Below, piece after piece: positions 4,109-32,915 of a stretch of DNA of 32,915 nt (position 1 is the stretch's first letter; the number at the start of each line of letters is the position of its first letter). The position numbers and the translations under genes are program-made. The stretch spans positions 1 to 32,915 of the forward strand of contig JANPJS010000063.1 in the NCBI GenBank assembly GCA_031425655.1, in the 5' to 3' direction. The stretch is from Abditibacteriaceae bacterium (GTDB lineage Bacteria; Armatimonadota; Abditibacteriia; Abditibacteriales; Abditibacteriaceae). The notes beneath the pieces are model-generated. The model did no database searches, was not told the DNA's origin, and saw only the letters and a list, made by a program, of their open reading frames with translations.

Positions 4109-5728
4109 CTATTTTCTGGCGCGCTTTAGCCACCACGCGCCGCCAACTCCGACGATAAAAGCGCTGATAAGTGCCGTCAAAATCAGCGTTGCCTGCCCGC
4201 TTTGGCCATTCGGCGCAGCGGTAGCCGAAGCATTTTCCCCAATCGCATCGAGAACCTTGAACTCAGCCTTTGGCTCGGCATACCAGAACGCCACCCAACG
4301 ATAAATTAAGTCATCCGAGTTATTAGATTTTCCATGCTCGAAGTCGAAGCGCAGCGACTTTTTGAACGGCACGGCATCGGGAATCATCAGGCGATAAGCC
4401 GACACGCCCGGTGGCATTTCGCTTTTGAAGGTCATGCCGTGATAGGGAAACGAAAACGGCTGCTTGGGAAAATACCACGCCGAGCTAAAAAAGTCTTCGG
4501 TTCCCGTGCCCTCGAACGCTTCGCCGTCGGCGGTAATCGTTTCGTTGCCTTCGAGATAAGCAAACGTGCGCCGCCGTGAATCCGGCGCCGGCACGATAGA
4601 CAAATTCAGCCCACAAAACGCGCCTTTGCCGGTCACATCCAGCATCCGCACCGGCGTTTTAAGCTGCGTTCGCGTTGCGCCATAAACGGCATGAAAACGA
4701 TAGGGCGGCGCTGTTTTCAATTGAAAACTACGGATTTTGCTCTCGAACGCAACCGGAGCGCTGCCAGTGTTGACGAAAGTAATTTTCGCGCCTTTCGAGA
4801 ACGGCATCGGCCATTTTAGCACGGCGATTTTTCCGTCGAAATCGAAGCCTGCGCTTTGCGCTTTTTTCCCGCCGTCGAACAAGCTAAGTAGCGCGGAAAC
4901 CGGCGCATCAATGGCGTTCGCCGCAGCGCCGTCCCACGCCGCGCGCATTCGCAGCGATTTCACGTCGTCGGGTTTTTGCAACGTCAATTCCAAAGTTTTA
5001 ATTTGCCCAACGCCTTTCAAATCAATGACTTTTTCGGCGCCGGGCGCCAGCAAGTTGCTTAACGATTCGCTCAGCGGCTTGGGTAAAGGCGCTGTCCATG
5101 CGGGAGGATTTGGACGAATTGTAATCTGGTAGAAGAATTTATTTTCGTCCTTGCTGACGTTGGTTACAGCCAATTGCGGCGAGTTGCCACTTAGCGTATC
5201 GGTGGGTGCGAACTGTCCGTGTTTGTATTCGCTTCGCTTCTCAATTTCTGCGGGGTCTTCCTCAGGCGGCAATAACAAAAAGGCCTTTTGGTGAATCGAG
5301 ATGTGATTGTAAACGAATGGGCCAACCGATTGTATTTTTCCGTTTCGGGCCAGCAGCCATGGGGTTCCCAAATCATCGCTCAACAAGCGGGTTTCTATCT
5401 TTTCCGGCTCCAACGCCGTCCACCAAAGTCGCTCCAAACGCCCCGATGCCAGCGGGATTTTGCGCGTTTCGCCCGGTTTCAGCAGCAGATAATCTTCGTT
5501 TTCATGCTTCGGGTCGGTCGAAGCGAACCATTTATACGGCGGCGCATCGGGCGCAGAAAGCAGCGATTCGTTGGCGGCGAAGGCTTGCTTGGCGACTAAA
5601 GTCGCGGCAACAACGCAGCAAAGCCTGCCTGCGCAGGCTGAATTTCGAGATTTAGTCGCCGAAGGGCGACTTCGCTGAGTTGTTGCCGCGACTTTAGTCG
5701 CCAGGCCGCACTTAATAAATGGTGCCAT
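4109..5728 (-). CDS. DUF2961 (GH172-like) domain protein with N-terminal signal and C-terminal membrane anchor
   Basis: EGNE...GTGTEDFFSSAWYF, SAYR...PFKKSLRFDFEHG and VAFWY motifs. C-terminal TM segment with a KRARK tail. GGAGG lies 8 nt before ATG 5728. Confidence 0.8.
   Translation of the reverse strand: MAPFIKCGLATKVAATTQRSRPSATKSRNSACAGRLCCVVAATLVAKQAFAANESLLSAPDAPPYKWFASTDPKHENEDYLLLKPGETRKIPLASGRLERLWWTALEPEKIETRLLSDDLGTPWLLARNGKIQSVGPFVYNHISIHQKAFLLLPPEEDPAEIEKRSEYKHGQFAPTDTLSGNSPQLAVTNVSKDENKFFYQITIRPNPPAWTAPLPKPLSESLSNLLAPGAEKVIDLKGVGQIKTLELTLQKPDDVKSLRMRAAWDGAAANAIDAPVSALLSLFDGGKKAQSAGFDFDGKIAVLKWPMPFSKGAKITFVNTGSAPVAFESKIRSFQLKTAPPYRFHAVYGATRTQLKTPVRMLDVTGKGAFCGLNLSIVPAPDSRRRTFAYLEGNETITADGEAFEGTGTEDFFSSAWYFPKQPFSFPYHGMTFKSEMPPGVSAYRLMIPDAVPFKKSLRFDFEHGKSNNSDDLIYRWVAFWYAEPKAEFKVLDAIGENASATAAPNGQSGQATLILTALISAFIVGVGGAWWLKRARK
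5590..5703. repeat. 114-bp palindromic element inside the 5' end of the DUF2961 ORF
   Basis: Perfect ~25-bp terminal inverted repeat TGGCGACTAAAGTCGCGGCAACAAC, with internal hairpins AGCCTGCCTGCGCAGGCT and AGTCGCCGAAGGGCGACT. Confidence 0.9.
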
Positions 5729-6096: not shown

Positions 6097-6205
6097 TCTC
6101 TCGCAAAGACGCAAAGTCGCCAAGAAATTTCAGGTGATTTCGTGAGTCACACTTTGTCATCCTTAGAATCTTGTCTTCTTGGCGACTTTGCGTCTTTGCG
6201 AGAGA
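6097..6205. repeat. Intergenic inverted repeat (CGCAAAG-type family)
   Basis: Perfect 30-bp arms TCTCTCGCAAAGACGCAAAGTCGCCAAGAA at 6097-6126 and 6176-6205. Confidence 0.9.
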
Positions 6206-8001: not shown

Positions 8002-8245
8002 CTCATGTTACGCAGTAGGATGTGATAGGGCAGAAGAGCGGCTTTGCCGCTCGTGAAAACCCCCAACCCCCTTGGTAAGGGGGCTATGTTCTTACGCTTA
8101 TGAACAAGAATAACGTAATTCCAGTAAAAAAGCGTCTTCGTTTAGCCCCCTTACCAAGGGCGGGCGCCCTCTGGGCAGGTGGGGTTTTCACGAGCGGCAA
8201 AGCCGCTCTTTGCACCGCCTAACACTCCTCACTGCGTAAGGTGAA
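8002..8245. mobile_element. MITE-like long palindrome, copy 1
   Basis: Ends CTCATGTTACGCAGT and ACTGCGTAAGGTGAA. Inner arms AAGAGCGGCTTTGCCGCTCGTGAAAACCCC...CTTGGTAAGGGGGCTA. Homologous to 11678-11881. Confidence 0.75.
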
Positions 8246-11643: not shown

Positions 11644-11923
11644 AAAGCGGGGCTGACGCCTCCTTCCAATCAACAACTCACGTTACGCAATTGAGATTTA
11701 AGAGCGACTTTGTCGCTCATGGAAACCCCCAACCCCCTTGGTAAGGGGGCTATATTCTTACGCTTTGGGAGAAAATAAGCTGGATTTCTCCCTCCAAGTA
11801 ACGATTTAGCCCCCTTACCAAGGGGGTTGGGGGTTTCCATGAGCGACAAAGTCGCTCTTAAATCTCAACCGCATAACATCAATCAACAACATTCGGATTG
11901 GAAAAGGGCGTCAGCCCCGCTTT
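11644..11923. repeat. Outer REP-like hairpin interrupted by MITE copy 2
   Basis: Arms AAAGCGGGGCTGACGCCTCCTTCCAATC (11644-11671) and GATTGGAAAAGGGCGTCAGCCCCGCTTT (11896-11923). Confidence 0.85.
11678..11881. mobile_element. MITE-like long palindrome, copy 2, with target-site duplication
   Basis: Long inverted arms flanked by the direct repeat ATCAACAAC (11669-11677 and 11882-11890). Homologous to 8002-8245. Confidence 0.8.
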
Positions 11924-12394: not shown

Positions 12395-12468
12395 AAACGA
12401 ACCCAGAGCGTAAGCGACGGGCTTTTCGCTAAGGTGTTAAGCCCGTCGCTTACGCTCTGGGTTCGTTT
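12395..12468. repeat. REP-like inverted repeat
   Basis: Perfect 30-bp arms AAACGAACCCAGAGCGTAAGCGACGGGCTT with a 14-nt loop. Confidence 0.9.
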
Positions 12469-13546: not shown

Positions 13547-13714
13547 AATGATACTGGAATGTTTAGTCGCAATAATGCCATGTTGAGCGAGGATAATGGC
13601 AGGTTAAGCGACAGTAACACCCAGTTCAGCGAGGATAATAGCAAGTCAAGCGAGCGTAACGGCAAGTCAAGCGACAGTAACAGCAGGTCAAGCGACAAGA
13701 ATCGGAAGTTGAGC
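13547..13714. repeat. Degenerate 21-bp tandem array, 8 units
   Basis: Units such as GAGGATAATGGCAGGTTAAGC, GACAGTAACACCCAGTTCAGC, GAGCGTAACGGCAAGTCAAGC and GACAGTAACAGCAGGTCAAGC. Confidence 0.85.
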
Positions 13715-13748
13715 GACCACAGGGGCCGCCCCTACAGTTCGGCTGAGA

Positions 13749-13840
13749 CAATTGTAGCAAGCGGCGGCGGCGTTGTCAGCAAGTCGGTTTTAAGTAGCAC
13801 GCAATCGACCGCAATCCTTCCGCATAATTACGAGTTGGGC
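13749..13840 (+). repeat. Repeat A copy 1: promoter block plus attI-like simple site
   Basis: 52/57 identity (13749-13805 vs 15941-15997) and 25/28 identity (13809-13836 vs 16041-16068). Ends in GCATAAT-TACGA-GTTGGGC. Confidence 0.85.
13751..13779 (-). promoter_or_regulatory. Leftward sigma70-type promoter within repeat A1
   Basis: Bottom strand CTGACA-N17-TACAAT with a TGn extended -10. Confidence 0.65.
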
Positions 13841-13859
13841 CGGTGCGCGCAGTTTGGTT

Positions 13860-13959
13860 ACTACATCCGACCGCCGCCAGCTTGGTTCTTTGCGCGATGT
13901 TCCGGGTAAACTGTGTCCAAGTGGCGTCTGCGCGGCGGAGGGTGAGTCTGGCGTTGGGC
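13860..13959 (+). other. attC-like recombination site remnant (R'' box missing or degenerate)
   Basis: L''-like ACTACATC pairs with L'-like GGTGAGT (13941-13947), leaving one extrahelical base. Stems CCGCCGC/GCGGCGG and CTTGG/CCAAG. A 5-nt spacer then GTTGGGC (GTTRRRY) at 13953-13959. Confidence 0.6.
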
Positions 13960-14017
13960 AGTAGTAGGCCGACGGAACGGAGCAGTCACCAATTATTAAA
14001 AAGTAAAATAACCCCAC

Positions 14018-15001
14018 ATGGCTAACAAATCGCATTTCAATAGTGGCCACATAGCACTAAATCAATTGAAAAAGAATGGAGCTTCGCATAGTTCTACAAT
14101 CACTGGAATTTCAACGCCTCATACGGTTCATGGTGTCTTTATCCAAGATGCGGTTGAGTTTTTGAAGACATTGCCTGATTCATCAGTTCAGCTAATTCTA
14201 ATAGACCCGCCCTATAATCTTGATCTTGACAAGTGGGATACATTCAACAACTATCTCGATTGGGCAAAAGCATGGTTGGATGAAATTTACCGTGTGTTAT
14301 CTGATTCAGGTAACTGTGTCATTTTTGGCGGCTTCCAGTATCAGGATTTAAAGAAGGGAGACCTCCTTGAAATACTCCATTACACTCGCCATGAAACAGC
14401 TTTGCGATTTGTCAATCTTGTTATTTGGTATTACAAAAACGGTATGAGTGCGCATCGTTTTTTTGCCAACAGGCATGAAGAAGCAATTTGGCTCTCCAAA
14501 ACGAAGAAATACTATTTCGACTTGGACTCTGTTAGGGTGCCCTTTGATGAGGCGACAAAAGAGATTTACAAAAAAGATAAGCGTCTCAATCCTGAAAGCA
14601 TTGAAAAGGGGAAAAATCCTACAAATGTTTGGGAGATAGGAAGGCTAAACGGCAATTCGAGGGAGAGGGTTGGTCATTTAACGCAAAAGCCCGCCGAACT
14701 TATCCGGCGTTTTGTTAAGGCTCTGTCCTTTGAGGGTTCGATAGTCCTCGACTTTTTTGCCGGGTCTGGAACAACGGGACGTGTTTGCATAGAAGAGCGA
14801 CGGCATTCACTCTTAGTGGATTCAGATAATAAACTGCACGGTTATTTAGATGAACACATTAAGCAGATCAAATCGAATCTGTTCCTGCCTAAATACACTC
14901 TAATGACAGACTCCAACATTGATGCCGTGCTCGAAGAGATTGCTTTTGCGAATCAACAACTGCAAAAAAATCTGGTTGTAAAGGATTGTCCCAATGAGTA
15001 A
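14018..15001 (+). CDS. Beta-class N6-adenine DNA methyltransferase, M.RsrI-like
   Basis: DPPY precedes HLTQKP and LDFFAGSGTT (beta order). The N-terminus MANKSHFNSGH resembles M.RsrI as I recall it. Visibly AT-richer than the host genes. Confidence 0.9.
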   Translation: MANKSHFNSGHIALNQLKKNGASHSSTITGISTPHTVHGVFIQDAVEFLKTLPDSSVQLILIDPPYNLDLDKWDTFNNYLDWAKAWLDEIYRVLSDSGNCVIFGGFQYQDLKKGDLLEILHYTRHETALRFVNLVIWYYKNGMSAHRFFANRHEEAIWLSKTKKYYFDLDSVRVPFDEATKEIYKKDKRLNPESIEKGKNPTNVWEIGRLNGNSRERVGHLTQKPAELIRRFVKALSFEGSIVLDFFAGSGTTGRVCIEERRHSLLVDSDNKLHGYLDEHIKQIKSNLFLPKYTLMTDSNIDAVLEEIAFANQQLQKNLVVKDCPNE

Positions 15002-15797
15002 AAGACAAACAGGACGGCTAACCAACCAGCATATATCATCGGGAGGCGCTAGCGGTATCTTTGGCGCAGATGCTCAGGCGCATGACAAGTTTGTCGGTCG
15101 TGCAAGTTTGAACGTATTCGAGAAGCTTAAGCAACAATATCCGAGATACCAATTTAGATTTAGAACATCGCTCAGCAAACAGGAGATAAATGAAAAGCTA
15201 AACTCAATTGATAAGCGATTGGGAGAAACTCTTTTCGTAAAAATTTCAAGTATCAAACCTGATGGAGGAATTATCGAGGTTCAGGACAAAGATAATAAAT
15301 GGCGGGTAGTTTTAGTTAGCGAAGCAAAGTTTCAGGGGAAAGATATTGAAAACATTACAGCAGGGACACTTGTTGGGAAGAACAAAGATCAAGTGTTCAT
15401 GGCAGCGGGGAATGCAATCGAAAGAGTTTACAAAAACATTAATGAAATTAGGAATTTCATGCTGGACGAAAATCATTTCCCGTATGCAGTATTTTTGCAA
15501 GGCTCGAACTTTGCCACTGAAGTTGTTCAGGTGTTCAAACCCGACGGTTCTTTTGTGGAAATTAGACATGACTCAGGTTTATTGAACAGAATTGATAGAG
15601 TAACGGCGGCGAATTATTGCATGAAGATTAACAGCAATTACTGTAAAAATATGTTCATAGCTCACAGTAACTCGTCCATCATGCTTCAAGCAGCTTCCAT
15701 ATACGCAAGATGCGAACTTTGGAAAGAAGATGAAATGGAACAGATTATGATGGATATTGCAAATACATCCATAGGGATTTTAAATCAGTTGGGGTAA
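14994..15797 (+). CDS. EcoRI/RsrI-family type II restriction endonuclease (predicted target GAATTC)
   Basis: IKPDGGIIEV...VVLVSEAK (PD...EAK), MAAGNAIER and HFPYAVFLQGSNF match EcoRI. 8-bp overlap with the MTase gene. Confidence 0.93.
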   Translation: MSKRQTGRLTNQHISSGGASGIFGADAQAHDKFVGRASLNVFEKLKQQYPRYQFRFRTSLSKQEINEKLNSIDKRLGETLFVKISSIKPDGGIIEVQDKDNKWRVVLVSEAKFQGKDIENITAGTLVGKNKDQVFMAAGNAIERVYKNINEIRNFMLDENHFPYAVFLQGSNFATEVVQVFKPDGSFVEIRHDSGLLNRIDRVTAANYCMKINSNYCKNMFIAHSNSSIMLQAASIYARCELWKEDEMEQIMMDIANTSIGILNQLG

Positions 15798-15798
15798 C

Positions 15799-15836
15799 AC
15801 AAGAGATTCTTTTGGCAATGGGTAAAACGACCTCTT
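15799..15836 (+). repeat. Repeat B copy 1
   Basis: ACAAGAGATTCTTTTGGCAATGGGTAAAACGACCTCTT, 34/38 identical to 16700-16737. Both copies are followed by a T-run and GCCTCTCC. Confidence 0.85.
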
Positions 15837-15854
15837 TTTTGCCTCTCCTTTTAG

Positions 15855-15886
15855 GCGCGCTTCTCCGGCGAGAAGCGCGCTTTTTT
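15855..15886 (+). terminator. Rho-independent terminator after the R-M operon
   Basis: GCGCGCTTCTC-cggc-GAGAAGCGCGC-TTTTTT. Confidence 0.85.
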
Positions 15887-15940
15887 GTGTGTCGGATATG
15901 ACGCGGCGTTTTGACGATGAGCGTGCGCTGAAATTCACGC

Positions 15941-16072
15941 CAATCGTAGCAAGCGACGGCGGCGTTGTCAGCAAGGCGGTTCTCAGTAGCACGCAATTTT
16001 AGTGATCCAGATTCCATCATACAAGCGATCAAGCGATTATCCGCAATCCTTCCGCATAACTACTTGTTCTGT
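15941..16072 (+). repeat. Repeat A copy 2: promoter block plus attI-like simple site
   Basis: Same two blocks as A1, separated by an extra ~40 bp. Ends in GCATAAC-TACTT-GTTCTGT. Bottom strand CTGACA-N17-TACGAT. Confidence 0.85.
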
Positions 16073-16863: not shown

Positions 16864-18912
16864 ATGAAAGAATATGCTCCTGAAGCGATCAGGAACGTGG
16901 CTTTCGCCTCGCATAGCGGTTCCGGCAAGACCAGTCTTGCGGAAGCCTGCCTGTATCTTGCGGGAGCGACCGACCGGCTGGGCAAAGTGGACGACGGCAA
17001 CGCCGTCAGCGATTATCTGCCCGAAGAAATCAAGCGCCGCAGCTCGATTTGGACGGGTGTGATGGCCTTCGAGCACGAAAAGCTGAAAATCAACCTGCTC
17101 GACACGCCCGGATATGCCGACTTCTTCGGCGAGGTGGTGTCAGCGCTCAACGCCGTCGAAAATGTCGTGCTTGTGGCCAACGCCACGCATCCGGTTGAAT
17201 TTGGGTTGGAACACGCCGCGCAACACGCCATGTCTCACGGACTGGCGTGTTTTGTTTTTATCAACGAACTGGATAAAGAGCGCGCCAACTACGACGTAAC
17301 CTTCGACGCCCTGCACGACCGGATGCACCTGCCCGTCGTCGCGCTGACTTATCCACTGGGACAGGAAAGCAGTTTGCGCGGCTGGATTGATGTCATCGAG
17401 GGCAAAGCCTACGAAGACGCAGCGGGCAAACTCAGCGAAGTGCCGATTCCCGACGGATGCAGGGCGCGCGTTGAAGAATTGCACTCGCAGTTGGTCGAGG
17501 CCATCGTCGAAGTGGACGACGCCGCGATGGAAAAGTATCTCGATGGCGGCCAGCTTTCGCGCGACGAGATTATTCCGCTGATTCGCCAGTGCATCTCGTC
17601 GGGGCGCATCGCGCCCGTTCTGTGCGGCAGCGCCACGAAATTGCTTGGCGTGCGCCGATTGCTCGATCAACTCGTGCTGTGCGCGGTGCCGCCGCAAGCC
17701 AAACAAGACGTAGCGGCAGATGCCAACGCACCCTTCGCGGGCTTCGTGGTGAAAACTTTTTCCGACCCGCACACAGGCCGCGCGACGTTTCTTAAAATCG
17801 TGCGCGGCACGCTGGGGCGCGAGTCCGAGATTATCAATCTCAGCAACGGTTCGCACGAGAAAATCGCGCACCTTTACGCGCCGCTGGGCAAAAAAAGCGC
17901 TGAAGTGTCGCAAATGTGCGCGGGCGACATCGCTTTAGTTTTGAAATTGAAAAACACGCACACCAACGACAGTTTGGGCGCCTCGTCCGACAGTCCGCGC
18001 TTCGCCAAACCCGATTATCCTCAATCGCTTTACGCCCTCGCCTTAGATCCGGCCACGCGCGGCGATGACGACAAAATGAACGAGGCCTTAGCACGCTTGT
18101 TGGACGAAGACCCATCGTTCCACGTTGTTCGCAACGCGGAAACCCATCAAACGGTGGCTTACGGATTGGGCGATGTGCATTTGCAAACCCTGATTTCGCG
18201 TTTGCAGAGCGCGTTCGGTGTGAAAATCAACGTCAGCCAGCCGCGCATCGCGTATCACGAAACAATTCGCAAAGCCGTCAAAGTTGAAGGCAAATTGAAA
18301 AAGCAGTCGGGCGGGCACGGGCAATTTGCCGATGTGTGGCTGGAAGTCGAGCCGAACGCGCCGGGCGCTGGCTTTGAGTTCGTGGATAAAATCGTCGGCG
18401 GCGTCGTTCCGCGCGCTTTTATTCCCGCCGTCGAGGAAGGCGTGCGCGACGCATTAAAAGAAGGCCCGTTGGCCGGCTGTCCGCTCGTGGACGTGAAAGT
18501 GACGCTCTACGACGGCAAGTTTCACGATGTGGATTCGTCGTATCAGACCTTCAAGCAGGCGGGTTCCTATGGCTTACGCAGCGGCGCCAAGGAAGCCGCG
18601 CCGGTTTTGCTTGAACCCGTGATGAACGTCACGGTTGTTGCGCCCGAAGGCGGCGCGGGCGATGTTGTCGGCGATCTCAATGGCAGGCGCGGCCAGATTC
18701 TCGGTATGGAGCCAACCGGCGATGGCACCGTAAAAATCAACGCCTTAGTGCCCGACGCCTCGCTGATGCAATATCCGATCACGCTGCGTTCGCTCACACA
18801 CGGCGAAGGCCAATTCACCAAGCAATTCGCGCATTATGCGCCGGTTCCCGATCACGCGGCGAAACCATTGATTGAGGAATACCAAAAGCGCCGCGAAGCG
18901 AACGGGCACTGA
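16864..18912 (+). CDS. fusA2: Elongation factor G paralog (EF-G2/EF-G-like)
   Basis: IRNVA..SHSGSGKTSL, DTPGYADF, GLGDVHL, KKQSGGHGQFA, DGKFHDVDSS and LLEPVM. Stand-alone gene with degenerate G motifs relative to canonical FusA. Confidence 0.88.
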   Translation: MKEYAPEAIRNVAFASHSGSGKTSLAEACLYLAGATDRLGKVDDGNAVSDYLPEEIKRRSSIWTGVMAFEHEKLKINLLDTPGYADFFGEVVSALNAVENVVLVANATHPVEFGLEHAAQHAMSHGLACFVFINELDKERANYDVTFDALHDRMHLPVVALTYPLGQESSLRGWIDVIEGKAYEDAAGKLSEVPIPDGCRARVEELHSQLVEAIVEVDDAAMEKYLDGGQLSRDEIIPLIRQCISSGRIAPVLCGSATKLLGVRRLLDQLVLCAVPPQAKQDVAADANAPFAGFVVKTFSDPHTGRATFLKIVRGTLGRESEIINLSNGSHEKIAHLYAPLGKKSAEVSQMCAGDIALVLKLKNTHTNDSLGASSDSPRFAKPDYPQSLYALALDPATRGDDDKMNEALARLLDEDPSFHVVRNAETHQTVAYGLGDVHLQTLISRLQSAFGVKINVSQPRIAYHETIRKAVKVEGKLKKQSGGHGQFADVWLEVEPNAPGAGFEFVDKIVGGVVPRAFIPAVEEGVRDALKEGPLAGCPLVDVKVTLYDGKFHDVDSSYQTFKQAGSYGLRSGAKEAAPVLLEPVMNVTVVAPEGGAGDVVGDLNGRRGQILGMEPTGDGTVKINALVPDASLMQYPITLRSLTHGEGQFTKQFAHYAPVPDHAAKPLIEEYQKRREANGH

Positions 18913-19025
18913 AAGAAGGGATGAGGGCGGAGGGATGAAGGATGAAAAGTCGCGTTTCACGCCGTTGGTTTTCGCGCCGCAGGCGCTTTTCATCCTTCAT
19001 CCTTCCGCCCTCATCCCTTCTTTCA
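18910..19025. repeat. Inverted repeat built from GGATGAA/GGCGGAA heptamers
   Basis: 40-bp arms TGAAAGAAGGGATGAGGGCGGAGGGATGAAGGATGAAAAG with 1 mismatch. Confidence 0.9.
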
Positions 19026-20762: not shown

Positions 20763-20834
20763 AGTTTTGAGTTTTGAGTTTTGAGTTTTGAGTTGAGCTG
20801 TTAACTCATAATTCAAAACTTAAAACTCAAAACT
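20763..20834. repeat. Heptamer (TTTTGAG)n tandem repeat with an inverted partner
   Basis: AGTTTTG x4, then TCAAAAC-type units in inverted orientation. Confidence 0.88.
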
Positions 20835-21843: not shown

Positions 21844-21960
21844 TTAAACACAAAGGACACAAAGCAGGCACAAAGGCTCACAAAGAAAGTTCAAGAAAAG
21901 GGGGCCGGTAATGAAAATCTTTGTGAGTCTTTGCGCTTGCTTTGTGTCCTTTGTGTTTAA
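21844..21960. repeat. Inverted repeat built from CACAAAG units
   Basis: 43-bp arms (21844-21886 and 21918-21960) with 3 mismatches. Confidence 0.9.
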
Positions 21961-24492: not shown

Positions 24493-25596
24493 ATGTATCG
24501 CGCGGATGCTCGCCGTTTTGCAGAAGCGATGCGTCAAATTAACCATAACTATCGGCCTGATTTTTCGCCTCGGTTTTCAAATTACGCTAAAATTCGCAGG
24601 GTGCCTGCCGAAGAAGCCGTTATCAACGTCGCGCCGCAAGAGCGCGAAAAACCGTCGCCCGCCGGGTTTTGGGAATCGCCGTGGCCGTGGCTGGCGCTGC
24701 TTTTTGTGTTGCAATTGGGCGCTCCGTATCTTCCGATTCCCAATCGCACGGCGGCTCTGGCGGCGTTTCTGCTTTCGACCGCGCTTTACGTTTACGCGGT
24801 TGTGCAGGCCATCGCGCTGGGCACGCGCGGCAAGCTGCCGGCCTTCGTTTTAACCGCCGGATTGCTCGGCTGCGCGCTGCTGTGGTGGATTCTCGATAAA
24901 TGGGGCATTCCCCTTGCCGGCGGCGCATTGAGAGAAGCGTTTGAGGCGCGGCGCAGGCCTGCGGCATCGCAGATTTTCGTTTTTCAACTGGCGCAGACGG
25001 CTCAAAGCGCGGCTCTCATCGGCGCTTCGGTTTTTGGCGGGAGCTTGGTGGCACGCCTGATTACCGCGCCGAATATGCTCGGCCCGATTTGCGGCGTTAT
25101 CGCGCTGATTGACATTTGGGGCGTGTTGTTTTCCGGCCCAGTGGCCCAAATGCTGGAAAAAGTGCCGGAAATCGCGCAAAAAGCGATGCCCGCGCTGCCG
25201 GCTGCCGGCGCTTTGTCGAAGGGCGGCGCGAACTTCGCCATCCAGCCGTTGCAAATCGGCGCCGGCGATTATTTGTTTCTCGGACTGCTTTTCGCCGCTT
25301 TGCATCTGAACAACATGAATTGGCGCAGCGCCGCGAAATTGGCAACGCCCTTCATTTTCGTGCTGCTGATGGTGGTGTTTTTCACAGGCTGGGCGCTGCC
25401 GGGACTGCCCGCCATCGGGCTTGCCGTCGCGCTGCCGAATCTGAGGTATTTTCAGTTCACGCGCGAGGAAAATTTTGCCATGCTATGGGCCGGGCTGCTG
25501 GTCATCGTGCTGAGCATCGGCGCTTATTTCGCCGTGCAAAAAGTGCTGCCGGACAAAAAATCATCTCAACCGCCGATGAACACCGATAAACGCTGA
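24493..25596 (+). CDS. Polytopic membrane protein, putative GxGD (presenilin/SPP-like) aspartyl protease
   Basis: About 9 hydrophobic segments with ALIDIWGV...GP, IGAGDYLF and ALPGLP. Start uncertain (GTG 24601 is possible). Confidence 0.65.
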   Translation: MYRADARRFAEAMRQINHNYRPDFSPRFSNYAKIRRVPAEEAVINVAPQEREKPSPAGFWESPWPWLALLFVLQLGAPYLPIPNRTAALAAFLLSTALYVYAVVQAIALGTRGKLPAFVLTAGLLGCALLWWILDKWGIPLAGGALREAFEARRRPAASQIFVFQLAQTAQSAALIGASVFGGSLVARLITAPNMLGPICGVIALIDIWGVLFSGPVAQMLEKVPEIAQKAMPALPAAGALSKGGANFAIQPLQIGAGDYLFLGLLFAALHLNNMNWRSAAKLATPFIFVLLMVVFFTGWALPGLPAIGLAVALPNLRYFQFTREENFAMLWAGLLVIVLSIGAYFAVQKVLPDKKSSQPPMNTDKR

Positions 25597-25683
25597 TAAA
25601 TTCTGAAAAGTAAGCCTTGAATAAAATCAAGAAGCACTTCAAATCTATTTTTAATCCGCGTTAATCCGCGTTAATCCGTGGTT
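25568..25683. repeat. Imperfect inverted repeat with 10-bp periodic units
   Basis: AACCGCCGATGAACACCGATAAACGCTGATAAA versus (TTAATCCGCG)2 TTAATCCGTGGTT. Confidence 0.8.
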
Positions 25684-25699
25684 AAAAACCAATACCATC

Positions 25700-28372
25700 A
25701 TGAACGACATTGAAAAAACCGACCGCTATCAACCAGCGGACATTGAAACCAAATGGCAAACGCGCTGGGCGCAGCGAGACTTGTTTCGCACCAGCGACGA
25801 TCCGTCGAAGCCAAAATTCTATTACCTGGATATGTTCCCCTACCCGTCGGGCGATTTGCACGTCGGGCACGTTCGCAATTACGCTATCGGCGACGCTATC
25901 GCGCGCTATCGTGTCATGAATGGCTTCGCGGTGCTGCATCCGATGGGTTGGGACGCTTTCGGATTGCCCGCCGAAAACGCGGCGATTAAGAACCAAGTGC
26001 ATCCGCGCGACTGGACTTTGCGCTGCATCGAGCGAATGCACGAGCAATTCGCCAAATTGGGCATCGCCTTCGATTGGAATCACGAAGTCACGACCTGCCT
26101 GCCCGATTATTACAAGTGGACGCAGTGGCTTTTTCTGCAATTCTACAAGCGCGGATTGGCCGAACGGCGCGCGGCGAACGTCAACTGGTGCCCCAGTTGC
26201 GCGACGGTTTTGGCTAACGAACAAGTCAAAGACGGCGCCTGCGAACGCTGTAACTCAACCGTCGAACAAAAAACCTTGACGCAGTGGTTTTTCAAAACTA
26301 CCGCCTACGCACAGCGATTGTTGGACGATTTGGACGCATTAGAATGGCCCGAACGCGTGAAAACCATGCAGCGCCACTGGATTGGTCGCAGCGAAGGCGT
26401 GAGTTTTCACTTTCCGGTCCGGACCTCCCCTCCTGTGGGAGGGGTTGGGGGAGGGGAAGCCAAAACTATTGAAGTCTTTACGACGCGCGTGGACACGGTT
26501 TTCGGCGTCACTTACATGGTTTTGGCGCCCGATCATGCTTTAGTCGGCGATTTGGTGCGCGGCACGGAGTTCGAGACGCCCGCCGAAGAATTCAAAAACC
26601 ACGTCGCGCTGCAAAAAGACGAGCAGCGTGATCGCGGCGACGACATTCCCAAAGAGGGCATTTTCACCGGCGCTTATTGCATCAATCCGATGACTGGCGA
26701 AGACGTGCCGATTTGGCTCGGCAACTACGTGGTCAGCGATTACGGCAGCGGCGCCGTGATGGCCGTCCCAGCGCACGATCAGCGCGATTGGGAATTCGCT
26801 AAAGCACACGATTTGGCGATTAAAGTCGTGATTGGACCGCCCTCACCCCCGGCCCCTCTCCCAATCCGCTTCGCGGGAGAGGGGAGCAGGTTAGAACTTG
26901 GTAGCGTTTCGCTTTCTGATGTCGAGTCTGCATTCCCACTCCCCTCTCCCGCGAAGCGAATTGGGAGAGGGGCCGGGGGTGAGGGCGAACTCGGCGCCTA
27001 CGAGGAATATGGCGTTCTCATCAATTCCGGCGAATTTTCCGGCCTGTCATCGGCGGACGCTAAAACCAAAATCGCCGAATTCATGGAGGCGAACGGCATC
27101 GGTAAGCGCACCGTAAATTTCCGGTTACGCGATTGGTGTTTGTCGCGCCAGCGTTATTGGGGCTGCCCGATTCCCGTCATTTATTGCGAAGACGGCACGA
27201 TTGAAGCCGTGCCGGAAGACCAATTGCCGGTTTTGTTGCCGACCGATGTGAAATTCACCGGGCAGGGCGGCAATCCGCTTTTGACCAGCGATACCTTCCT
27301 CAACGCGACGGATTCGCAGGGCCGTCCGGCGCGGCGCGAAACCGATACGATGGATACCTTCGTGGATTCGTCGTGGTATTTTCTGCGCTATTGCTCGCCC
27401 GATTCCGCCGATGCGCCGTTTCGCGCCGAAGAAGTTGGGCGCTGGATGAACGTGGATCAATACGTCGGCGGCATCGAGCACGCTACGATGCACCTGATTT
27501 ACGCCCGTTTTTTCAACAAAGTGCTTTTCGATACGGGCATGGCGCCGACTTCAGAGCCGTTCGCGCGCTTGTTCACGCAAGGCATGGTCACGATGTATTC
27601 CGAAAAGGAAGACAAAGTGCTGAAAATGAGCAAAAGCAAAGGCAACGTGGTGGCGCTCGACCACGCCGTTTCGCGCTTTGGCGCCGACGCCACGCGCATG
27701 GCCACGCTTTATCTCGGCCCAGCGGAAATCGACGCCGAATGGGACAGAGACAGCGATAAAGTCTTCGTCGGCCCCTATCGTTTTCTGGAAAAAGTCTGGC
27801 GACTGGCTCTGGCGCGGCCTTTTACGGCCAACTGGCGCGAAATTATCGGAGAGGTTTCGCCCGCTGATGTGAAGCTGCGCCGCAAAACGCATCAAACGAT
27901 TCTCAAAGTCGGCGCCGACATCGAACGCTTTTCCTTGAATACAGCTTTAGCCGCATTGATGGAATTTTCCAACACGCTGCAAGAATGGCACAGCAAAAGG
28001 ATGAAGGATGAAGGCGGAAGTCTGAGCGAAAACGCCGTGTATTCCGAAGCGATTGAATCGCTTTTGGTGCTTTTAGCGCCGTTCGCGCCGCATCTTGCCG
28101 ATGAATTACTGGAACAACTCGGCTTCGCGTCGTCGGCTTACGAAATGGCGTGGCCAAAGGGCGACGCAGAACTGGCAAAGGAAGAAGAAATCGTGATGCC
28201 GGTGCAGATCAACGGCAAACTGCGCGCAAGGTTGACCGTTCCCGCTGATAGCGATGAGGAAACCGTGCGACAAGCCGCATTGGGCGACGCCGATGTGCAA
28301 GCGCAACTCGGCGGAGCCGCGCCCAAGCGCGTTATCATCGTGCCGGGCCGTTTAGTCAACATCGTCGCGTAA
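25700..28372 (+). CDS. leuS: Leucine--tRNA ligase carrying repeat-derived insertions
   Basis: MFPYPSG.LHVGH, WIGRSEG, TTRVDT, GAVMAVPAHDQRD, DWCLSRQRYWG, GGIEHA, KMSKS and RLVNIV. Confidence 0.98.
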   Translation: MNDIEKTDRYQPADIETKWQTRWAQRDLFRTSDDPSKPKFYYLDMFPYPSGDLHVGHVRNYAIGDAIARYRVMNGFAVLHPMGWDAFGLPAENAAIKNQVHPRDWTLRCIERMHEQFAKLGIAFDWNHEVTTCLPDYYKWTQWLFLQFYKRGLAERRAANVNWCPSCATVLANEQVKDGACERCNSTVEQKTLTQWFFKTTAYAQRLLDDLDALEWPERVKTMQRHWIGRSEGVSFHFPVRTSPPVGGVGGGEAKTIEVFTTRVDTVFGVTYMVLAPDHALVGDLVRGTEFETPAEEFKNHVALQKDEQRDRGDDIPKEGIFTGAYCINPMTGEDVPIWLGNYVVSDYGSGAVMAVPAHDQRDWEFAKAHDLAIKVVIGPPSPPAPLPIRFAGEGSRLELGSVSLSDVESAFPLPSPAKRIGRGAGGEGELGAYEEYGVLINSGEFSGLSSADAKTKIAEFMEANGIGKRTVNFRLRDWCLSRQRYWGCPIPVIYCEDGTIEAVPEDQLPVLLPTDVKFTGQGGNPLLTSDTFLNATDSQGRPARRETDTMDTFVDSSWYFLRYCSPDSADAPFRAEEVGRWMNVDQYVGGIEHATMHLIYARFFNKVLFDTGMAPTSEPFARLFTQGMVTMYSEKEDKVLKMSKSKGNVVALDHAVSRFGADATRMATLYLGPAEIDAEWDRDSDKVFVGPYRFLEKVWRLALARPFTANWREIIGEVSPADVKLRRKTHQTILKVGADIERFSLNTALAALMEFSNTLQEWHSKRMKDEGGSLSENAVYSEAIESLLVLLAPFAPHLADELLEQLGFASSAYEMAWPKGDAELAKEEEIVMPVQINGKLRARLTVPADSDEETVRQAALGDADVQAQLGGAAPKRVIIVPGRLVNIVA
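26424..26456. repeat. Half palindromic element in-frame in leuS
   Basis: CCTCCCCTCCTGTGGGAGGGGTTGGGGGAGGGG, encoding SPPVGGVGGG. Confidence 0.75.
26839..26986. repeat. 148-bp palindromic element in-frame in leuS
   Basis: 48-bp arms GCCCTCACCCCCGGCCCCTCTCCCAATCCGCTTCGCGGGAGAGGGGAG with 1 mismatch. Each arm is itself a hairpin. Confidence 0.95.
27997..28020 (+). repeat. GGATGAA heptamer tract in-frame in leuS
   Basis: AAGGATGAAGGATGAAGGCGGAAG (RMKDEGG), the same units as 18910-19025. Confidence 0.75.
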
Positions 28373-28392
28373 AAGTCGCATAAATCGGCAAA

Positions 28393-28428
28393 GAAAAAGG
28401 CCTACCCCAAACGGGGCAGGCCTTTTTC
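28393..28428. terminator. Bidirectional terminator
   Basis: GAAAAAGGCCTACCCC-aaac-GGGGCAGGCCTTTTTC between convergent genes. Confidence 0.85.
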
Positions 28429-28440
28429 GATTTCCAAGCT

Positions 28441-28959
28441 TTACATCGCGGAAAAACGTCCGCCGTGCTGCGCCAAAACCGAACGCACTTGGTCGGAGCT
28501 AACGGCGCTGCCCGTGGTGTCAACGGCCACCAAAACGCGGCCTTGCTCGACTTCGCCGCCGTAATAAGCCGCATCGCGCTCGTCGTAGCCAGCATGAGCT
28601 AATGCGCCGGCAATGGCGCCCGTCGTGCCGCCAACAACCGCACCGGCTACCGCGCCGCCGCCGACCGCGCCGAGAGCGGTCGTCAGCAAGGTGCCCGCCG
28701 TGATGAACGGCCCGACGCCGGGAATGAGCGCGGCGGCGATACCAAACAAAGCGCCGACTCCGGCGCCGGCGGCCAAACCTTTAGCCGCGTCCGAGCCGGC
28801 GTCCGTGGCGGCGTGCGCGCCATCTTCCATCGAAACGCCATCGCCGTGCTTCGATACGAAAGACAAATGCGCGTCGGCAACGCCCATGCCGCGCAATGCG
28901 GATACGGCCTGTTCGGCTTGCTGCTGGCTGTCAAAAACAGCGGTTACTCGGTTCATCAT
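28441..28959 (-). CDS. General stress protein (YflT-like with glycine zipper)
   Basis: VTAVFDSQQQAEQAVSAL..G, Gly/Ala-rich IPGVGPFITAG and Y...VEQGRVLVAV. GAGG RBS. Confidence 0.82.
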   Translation of the reverse strand: MMNRVTAVFDSQQQAEQAVSALRGMGVADAHLSFVSKHGDGVSMEDGAHAATDAGSDAAKGLAAGAGVGALFGIAAALIPGVGPFITAGTLLTTALGAVGGGAVAGAVVGGTTGAIAGALAHAGYDERDAAYYGGEVEQGRVLVAVDTTGSAVSSDQVRSVLAQHGGRFSAM

Positions 28960-32768: not shown

Positions 32769-32791
32769 GAATAAGAACCCCATCAAGAGAA

Positions 32792-32915
32792 CCCCATCCC
32801 CGGCCCTTCCCCTTAAACGACAGGGGAAGGGAGGTCAGACCCTTTTGCTTCGGGAGAATTATTAGTTTTTCGGGGAATATGCGTGCTCTCCCTTCCCCTG
32901 TCGTTTAAGGGGAAG
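32792..32915. repeat. Palindromic element related to the large leuS insert (truncated by the window end)
   Basis: Left arm CCCCATCCCCGGCCCTTCCCCTTAAACGACAGGGGAAGGGAG. Bases 32888-32915 are the perfect reverse complement of 32806-32833. Confidence 0.88.

Follow-up and report, generated by a model that had tools for sequence, protein, structure and literature searches.

The gene leuS of an Abditibacteriaceae bacterium (assembly GCA_031425655.1, genome G000 in what follows), which encodes leucyl-tRNA synthetase (LeuRS), contains three stretches of repeat-derived DNA that are inserted in frame. An alignment with close relatives demonstrated that all three are absent from the orthologs of two same-genus genomes. 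The gene lies in the window analysed here, namely the whole stretch of 32,915 nucleotides of contig JANPJS010000063.1, to which all positions given without a contig or locus name refer. The insertions are probably tolerated, and likely neutral, with repeats of the genome sitting in frame in leuS and the survivors gathering in tolerant loops of long-resident core genes. The main lead of the analysis is the tie between the GC-rich arms of these repeats and DUF559 nuclease genes, including the presence of the nuclease domain at the same leuS position in another phylum.

Three in-frame inserts in leuS

The leuS gene (leucine--tRNA ligase, 890 aa; 25700..28372, + strand) scores above the NCBIfam leuS_bact cut-off. 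An earlier note on this DNA had claimed three repeat-derived in-frame insertions within it, and the claim was confirmed: a lone repeat arm, an inverted pair of arms and a tract of heptamers are present, and the frame is open throughout.

Insert 1 (26424..26458, + strand; residues 242-252) is a single G-rich arm of the BoxC/triplex-motif-like type, located in the CP1 editing domain directly before the FTTR motif. Its 35 nt are arranged as a 7-bp stem, a 3-nt loop and then a third G-rich strand, and it is identical to copies on contig C92 at 27 of 30 positions. The anchor-to-anchor distance at this site is 37 aa, as opposed to 27-28 aa in 27 of 29 other LeuRS (the exceptions being 45 and 34 aa).

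Insert 2 (26838..26987, + strand; residues 380-429), in a late CP1 loop, is an inverted pair of BoxC/triplex-motif-like arms that spans 150 bp, with arms of 49 nt each (26838-26886 and 26939-26987), 98% complementary and separated by a 52-nt spacer. The initial description of a full palindrome of 148 bp is therefore correct as to the inverted pair, but the element is not palindromic throughout, as the spacer pairs weakly. The calculated RNA fold is very stable (−126.7 kcal/mol, z = −13.2), none of 200 shuffles being equally so. In the two same-genus orthologs site 2 measures 47 and 70 aa from anchor to anchor, versus 85 aa here, and the overall range is 40-93 aa (28 of 29 readable). Copies of the arms that are 98-100% identical over 45-49 nt were found on five other contigs (C263, C279, C239, C1 and C301), which suggests a recent arrival or conversion.

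Insert 3 (27999..28019, + strand; residues 766-773) is formed by three phased heptamer units of the GGATGA/GGCGGA family, that is 21 nt or seven codons, at a loop between two helices of the anticodon-binding domain. It is part of 25 nt that recur unchanged in a copy on contig C48 (E 1.6e-7), and tracts like it were found 0 times in 20 codon-order shuffles of all called genes. Site 3 does not exceed the longest family orthologs, so that this insert is recognised by its DNA and not by its length.

At each site the net gain in length is below the length of the repeat (+9 aa for approximately 11 codons at site 1, +38 or +15 aa for 50 codons at site 2, and +6 aa for seven codons at site 3), so that some host codons must have been replaced. 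In 31 paired elements the direct repeats found at the flanks were no longer than those of a mismatched-pair control (2 nt in the case of insert 2), and a miniature inverted-repeat transposable element was rejected on the basis of this lack of a target-site duplication beyond control.

In an AlphaFold model built from 24 sequences, which could be superimposed on solved LeuRS with TM-scores up to 0.84, the predicted local distance difference test (pLDDT) value falls below 50 at residues 245-251 and 384-430, and inserts 1 and 2 are the only long low-confidence stretches of the model, the first residues aside. In the alignment to the first PDB hit, 1h3n, the leuS inserts are plain gaps. The three sites are thus likely permissive surface loops according to the model, in agreement with the earlier note, which had placed the inserts in loops and proposed mapping them on a structure.

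The host gene is very likely a working enzyme because it keeps 324 of the 325 columns that are invariant among the other family members (one column differs) and because the differences from two same-genus orthologs are concentrated at third codon positions (0.41-0.44) as opposed to second positions (0.12-0.13), a pattern indicating that leuS is under purifying selection. A single match at E<=1e-50 was obtained in its own genome (97% complete), in which it is the only leuS found. In another genome of the genus (G003, C24 51705-54228) leuS was matched in overlapping pieces with several TGA stops, corresponding to either a frameshifted assembly or a broken gene.

Repeat families and their distribution in the genome

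The census of G000 was made with our own relaxed detector, which replaced a first strict pattern that had recovered only 31 arms, and with a simple gene caller. It yielded 102 triplex-motif-like elements (152 arms; three shuffles gave 0, 0 and 1), of which 86 are intergenic, nine lie inside genes and seven at gene ends or edges. Since 57 are single-armed and 45 contain at least two arms, the class is one of dispersed multicopy elements occurring singly or as inverted pairs. A loose hairpin scan returned 328 hits versus 40 after shuffling. Period-7 (heptamer) tracts numbered 248, with 150 intergenic and 32 inside genes (one coding-set shuffle gave 0).

The densities in intergenic and coding DNA, respectively, are 89 versus 2.1 per Mb for the triplex-motif-like elements and 155 versus 7.6 per Mb for the heptamer tracts, corresponding to a depletion in coding DNA of approximately 40-fold and 20-fold. 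Given that 361 of 534 frames are stop-free and that one length in three is in frame, the reading frame alone explains only a 4- to 5-fold loss; the remaining depletion, in which frame-breaking copies are not counted apart, therefore points to a protein-level filter or to a preference for intergenic sites.

As to the class of inserts 1 and 2, the broad G/C-rich class II triplex motif (a pyrimidine stem, a complementary purine stem and a third G-rich strand) can be traced in both sequences. The strict TM_ECO consensus (9-nt stem, 3-6-nt loop, 9-nt stem, 3-nt loop, 9-nt strand) is matched eight times elsewhere in G000 and by neither insert, insert 1 departing from it by its 7-bp stem and insert 2 by a 12-nt first loop and 10-nt stems. 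They are filed for this reason as variants of the BoxC/PIT/TM_ECO repeat, not as Rickettsia palindromic elements (RPEs), an assignment made from their sequence. The earlier comparison with RPEs holds as an analogy, but two of the pieces are BoxC/PIT/triplex-motif-like and the third is a heptamer array. A blastn search with insert 2 against 5,426 E. coli genomes gave a single hit at chance level (E = 6), and Rfam returned 0 matches at gathering score within the window, a result that is no measure of RPE homology. A partner transposase of the Y1 type (PF01797), as in REP/REPIN-RAYT systems, was rejected, none of the six Y1 genes of G000 having a triplex-motif-like element within 400 nt.

Re-use of the same loops in relatives

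Other repeats occupy site 1 or site 2 in three of 29 LeuRS orthologs, namely heptamers at site 1 in L016, a BoxC-like pair at site 2 in L006 and GGATGA heptamers at site 2 in L013, and the motifs of L006 and L013 recur within their own genomes. In a phylum-wide leuS search 237 of 251 genomes were matched, the sequences read being the top loci and 20 more picked by length, a sample from which no frequency follows. Of the 20 loci picked for long loops or frames, two (L179 and L187) have, by eye, a BoxC-like piece at site 1, and two others (L185 and L188) have heptamers at site 3. Inserts of up to approximately 50 aa at site 2 with no visible repeat origin were observed in L002, L014, L003, L004, L005, L007, L008, L020 and L155, those of L002 and L014 resembling each other across genera.

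A similar picture is provided by other genes. One loop of ileS is filled by a BoxC-like pair in G000 and by heptamer tracts in three of five relatives, and is empty in the other two; mutS of the same-genus genome G001 contains the GGATGA family where G000 has another heptamer; and alaS of G001 carries another BoxC-like subfamily. Because unrelated repeat families occupy one position, these sequences would fit a filter based on tolerance better than the action of one site-specific enzyme.

Other host genes

That several repeat types donate peptide sequence to a core enzyme had been proposed for leuS; three repeat subfamilies do supply in-frame sequence to it, but the phenomenon is not special to leuS. 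A scan of the coding genes for the repeat families, as the earlier note had proposed, revealed further hosts, among them ileS, alaS, proS, uvrA, mfd, recG, mutS, mutS2, mutL, priA and ruvC, with in-frame copies in ileS, alaS, proS, uvrA, mutS and recG. The 44 hosts considered are the internal hosts of both censuses with three from a looser scan (alaS, proS and an oligopeptide permease), gene-end cases and one weak C215 frame being left out. Of the 44 hosts, 12 are tRNA synthetases or repair genes, versus five of 100 length-weighted controls (p = 3.5e-4), where hosts were scanned at E 1e-20 and controls at 1e-45, and two control genes (ruvC and mutS2) are also hosts. Named core genes, counted only from hits better than 1e-45, account for 22 of the 44 hosts and 17 of the 100 controls, and within them tRNA synthetases and repair genes are not significantly over-represented (12 of 22 versus five of 17, p = 0.19). 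Because the enrichment loses its significance at this level, the long residence of core genes is a sufficient explanation for it.

The link to the DUF559 nuclease

In G000, a triplex-motif-like pair precedes each of the two strong DUF559 genes. Among 30 DUF559 genes of the same bacterial family, 17 have triplex-motif-like arms within 300 nt, and 38 arms were counted in 16.5 kb near these genes versus one in 44.8 kb further away. Insert 2 is identical at 44 of 45 positions to the arm upstream of a DUF559 gene in G001 (L132), and insert 1 at 29 of 31 positions to the arm upstream of a DUF559 gene in G005 (L120). Also in E. coli K-12 the DUF559 gene ycjD has a strict TM_ECO motif (L115 3206-3240, between fabI and ycjD) at a distance of 168 nt from its 3' end.

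Of the 54 long DUF559-containing proteins recovered by a search, 33 are LeuRS in which the domain occupies site 1, between the same anchors as insert 1; the others are, by Pfam lists, mostly UvrD-type helicases and HsdR subunits, with one RecG. In Bacteroidota, site 1 is empty in 36 of 79 readable loci, carries a short insert in 15 and DUF559 in 28, figures drawn from the 80 top-ranking stretches (one unreadable) among 622 confirmed with a DUF559-bearing query, a query-biased set that gives no frequency. At least one arm and the EVDG..H motif, which we take to be the catalytic stretch of DUF559, are kept in 21 of the 28 DUF559-bearing loci, and both have been lost in seven. The decayed LeuRS-borne domains (L266, L272, L279, L283, L285, L292 and L298) are in frame in several genera, a condition that may reflect decay or domestication. 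DUF559 at site 1 is patchy on the host tree, with at least 18 changes among 79 rows (shuffles, 17-28; four of 500 at or below 18), as counted on a quick tree with change counts that do not separate gain from loss. A second DUF559 copy, around residue 700, was noticed in two Bacteroidota LeuRS (P0002 and P0003).

On these grounds, the DUF559 (Vsr-like) nuclease may be the mobiliser of the GC-rich arms, a role for which it is a serious candidate, although somewhat short of a probable one. For the heptamer tract a lead, more doubtful than the former, is offered by cassettes encoding a four-helix bundle (PF05635, the 23S intervening sequence (23S-IVS) protein family), whose genes are flanked by period-7 tracts in 18 of 30 cases versus two of 58 control windows.

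Proposed mechanism and alternative explanations

The preferred reading of tolerated insertion would proceed as follows. The repeats would spread throughout the genome, likely through a nuclease cut that is repaired from a repeat-bearing template, as proposed because host codons were replaced and no target-site duplication was found. Copies that break the frame or the structure would then likely be purged by selection, and the survivors would build up, as likely neutral peptides, in those loops of long-resident core genes that tolerate them. The leuS inserts are likely translated, as disordered surface loops according to prediction, and the GC-rich arms are predicted to represent the ends, devoid of a gene, of a small cassette that DUF559 helps to move.

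A bolder formulation can be advanced, but is rather unlikely to hold in full. By this, BoxC/triplex-motif repeats would be the ends and the gene-less offspring of a minimal DUF559-driven selfish element, which would enter essential genes in frame and, with no splicing, be translated as a passenger domain. Site 1 of leuS would be a landing site used across phyla and found in full, decayed and gene-less states, and the heptamer arrays would form a parallel system that takes their place in these loops.

Several observations weigh against these proposals. Site 2 holds long inserts with no visible repeat origin in several relatives, and the gene caller scores frame-breaking insertions as intergenic, so that the coding depletion is inflated. 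The arms near the DUF559 genes of the family are mostly on the 5' side only, with both sides occupied in four of 30, and 'cassette ends' are therefore not the usual layout in the family. The seven decayed DUF559 copies apparently stem from approximately two events, so that the coupling of arm and motif does not amount to 28 independent cases. A lone BoxC-type arm was seen by eye in none of the 15 short site-1 inserts of the Bacteroidota set, and no DUF559-sized insert was present at site 1 in the leuS loci read in the bacterium's own phylum. The GGATGA family itself flanks none of the 30 four-helix-bundle genes. Finally, DUF559 could be nothing more than a passenger with a preference for repeat-rich sites.

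The alternative that survives best, albeit an improbable one, is that a repeat-DUF559-repeat cassette homes to the conserved site 1 of leuS in the manner of an intein endonuclease but with no splicing, insert 1 being its right-hand end, a scar that remained when the other parts were deleted. It draws on the full cassettes found at that very position in Bacteroidota, on their very patchy distribution with coexisting intact and decayed copies, and on PMC3424549, in which DUF559 is placed in one group with Vsr and a homing endonuclease of a group I intron. However, one target-specific nuclease does not explain the unrelated repeat families in the same loops, insert 1 matches the dispersed subfamily of its own genome, and the patchiness may reflect losses as well as gains; moreover, neither the lone-arm intermediate nor an own-phylum cassette appeared in the sets described above.

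Less probable still is a role at the RNA level, in which the 150-nt hairpin would be cut or removed from the mRNA like an intervening sequence of rRNA, or would tune the expression of tRNA synthetase and DNA-repair genes. The stability of the insert 2 hairpin, the overall excess of such genes among the hosts and the association of heptamer arrays with genes of the 23S-IVS protein family are in its favour. On the other hand, all three inserts are in frame and in predicted loops, as expected if they are translated; they are lineage-specific and replaced by unrelated sequence in sister genomes; the excess is not significant among named core genes; and the related PIT/TM elements have neither promoter nor terminator activity in E. 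coli, according to PMC4666352. Tolerated insertion followed by selection remains the preferred reading.

The last alternative, an assembly artefact in which repeat arms were mis-joined into leuS, or a leuS copy that is dead or unused, is very improbable, since, although the assembly is of the metagenome type (327 contigs) and the contigs of sequencing run X1 that were listed end within insert 2, with 26870-26957 bridged by none among them, the contigs of this run are identical to 25600-26869 and 26958-28450, a span that takes in inserts 1 and 3 as well as the outer junction of insert 2 on either side (an agreement that is not independent, run X1 being possibly the source of the assembly), the only leuS found in the genome has an open frame and its conserved columns, and separately assembled relatives exhibit the same pattern. 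Matches in runs X2-X4 were only short pieces of other organisms, with no empty allele of a close strain and no exact junction.

Other elements of the window

The earlier note had recognised relatives of inserts 2 and 3 in intergenic DNA. The one at 18910..19025 (no strand assigned), an inverted pair of GGATGA heptamer arrays that begins at the stop codon of an EF-G-family gene, does belong to the insert 3 family, but the BoxC/triplex-motif-like pair at 32790..32915 (no strand assigned), which is cut by the contig end, is of a different subfamily from insert 2, the 32792-32915 element having only 17 of 21 leader bases in common with it.

At least seven further intergenic inverted-repeat elements of other families are present (5587-5706, 6097-6205, 8034-8210, 11644-11923, 12395-12468, 20763-20834 and 21844-21960); by eye, the arm type of the elements at 8034 and 11682 is that of the pairs flanking a DUF559 gene on contig C244. 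Directly 5' of leuS (25570-25690) an inverted pair of arrays of 9-base units provides the last residues and the stop of the upstream gene, and similar arms flank, again by eye, GxxExxY (PF13366) genes on C298 and C126. Elsewhere in G000 (C198; L060 372-1442) a 356-aa frame, IS-transposase-like by eye, occupies the spacer of a BoxC-like pair, which is widened to 1.3 kb. Genes for a DNA methylase and an EcoRI-family endonuclease are located at 13749-15997 between 57-nt direct repeats (13749-13805 and 15941-15997; 91%), adjoined by a 21-nt tandem array (13551-13718); this region resembles an added restriction cassette, one end of which is duplicated.

Comparison with known systems

The closest known repeat is BoxC/PIT/TM_ECO of E. 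coli K-12, which, according to Holder et al. (2015, PMC4666352), is present in 23 copies, always intergenic and sometimes as inverted pairs, with no known mover and no link to mobile elements found. In common with it, the elements described here have a C-rich stem, a G-rich stem and a third G-rich strand, occur as single arms and inverted pairs, and are dispersed in many copies; the second loop is CCG in insert 2, as in TM_ECO type B, and TTG in insert 1, versus TTA in type A. They differ in that the stems and loops of the leuS inserts are off the strict consensus, in that in-frame copies occur in essential genes, and in that DUF559 genes have arms next to them or on both sides. A literature search that covered few subscription papers and none of the PMC4666352 supplements brought up no publication that ties BoxC-type repeats to DUF559, and none that reports DUF559 in tRNA synthetases; in the available parts of PMC3424549, PMC12308824 and PMC13114784 the domain is not linked to these repeats.

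With Vsr-like homing endonucleases (the I-Bth0305I group, listed with DUF559 in PMC3424549) the system shares a nuclease of the same group, which occurs patchily at a single conserved position in an essential gene, and decayed copies. It departs from them in that no intron or intein was seen around the LeuRS-borne DUF559 (no search for splicing motifs having been made), and in that leuS of G000 carries no nuclease.

The cyanobacterial heptamer repeats known as short tandemly repeated repetitive (STRR) sequences, together with small dispersed repeats, have seven-base units in short tandem tracts and many families per genome. The heptamers of G000 are alike in these respects, but are usually inverted pairs, often flank PF05635 genes and recur at the same protein loops. 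A passage in PMC2884548 touches on such cyanobacterial repeats.

If these ties hold, the locus connects BoxC/PIT, which has been without a mover since the 1990s, to a named candidate nuclease that can be purified. Site 1 of leuS offers an exact and conserved test site, of which cultured Flavobacteriaceae have empty, full and decayed alleles, and the E. coli K-12 motif near ycjD a test case in a laboratory strain. The loops of LeuRS, IleRS, AlaRS and MutS, repeatedly filled in evolution, would be natural places to insert tags, provided that the inserts turn out to be harmless.

In-frame repeats in housekeeping genes are already known, and the leuS locus by itself is a good but ordinary example of them. 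As with RPEs and other coding repeats (BRE, RUP and BOX; PMC10969869 and PMC3184786), a palindrome of approximately 150 bp sits in frame in unrelated housekeeping genes, is compatible with the fold by prediction and has no known mover. The typical RPE feature, a 105-150-bp palindrome in frame in unrelated genes, is found in insert 2 and not in inserts 1 and 3 (35 and 21 nt). Likened to RPEs by description only, the elements of G000 are distinguished from them by the different phylum, the GC-rich nested-arm build, the several unrelated families per gene and the candidate partner nuclease.

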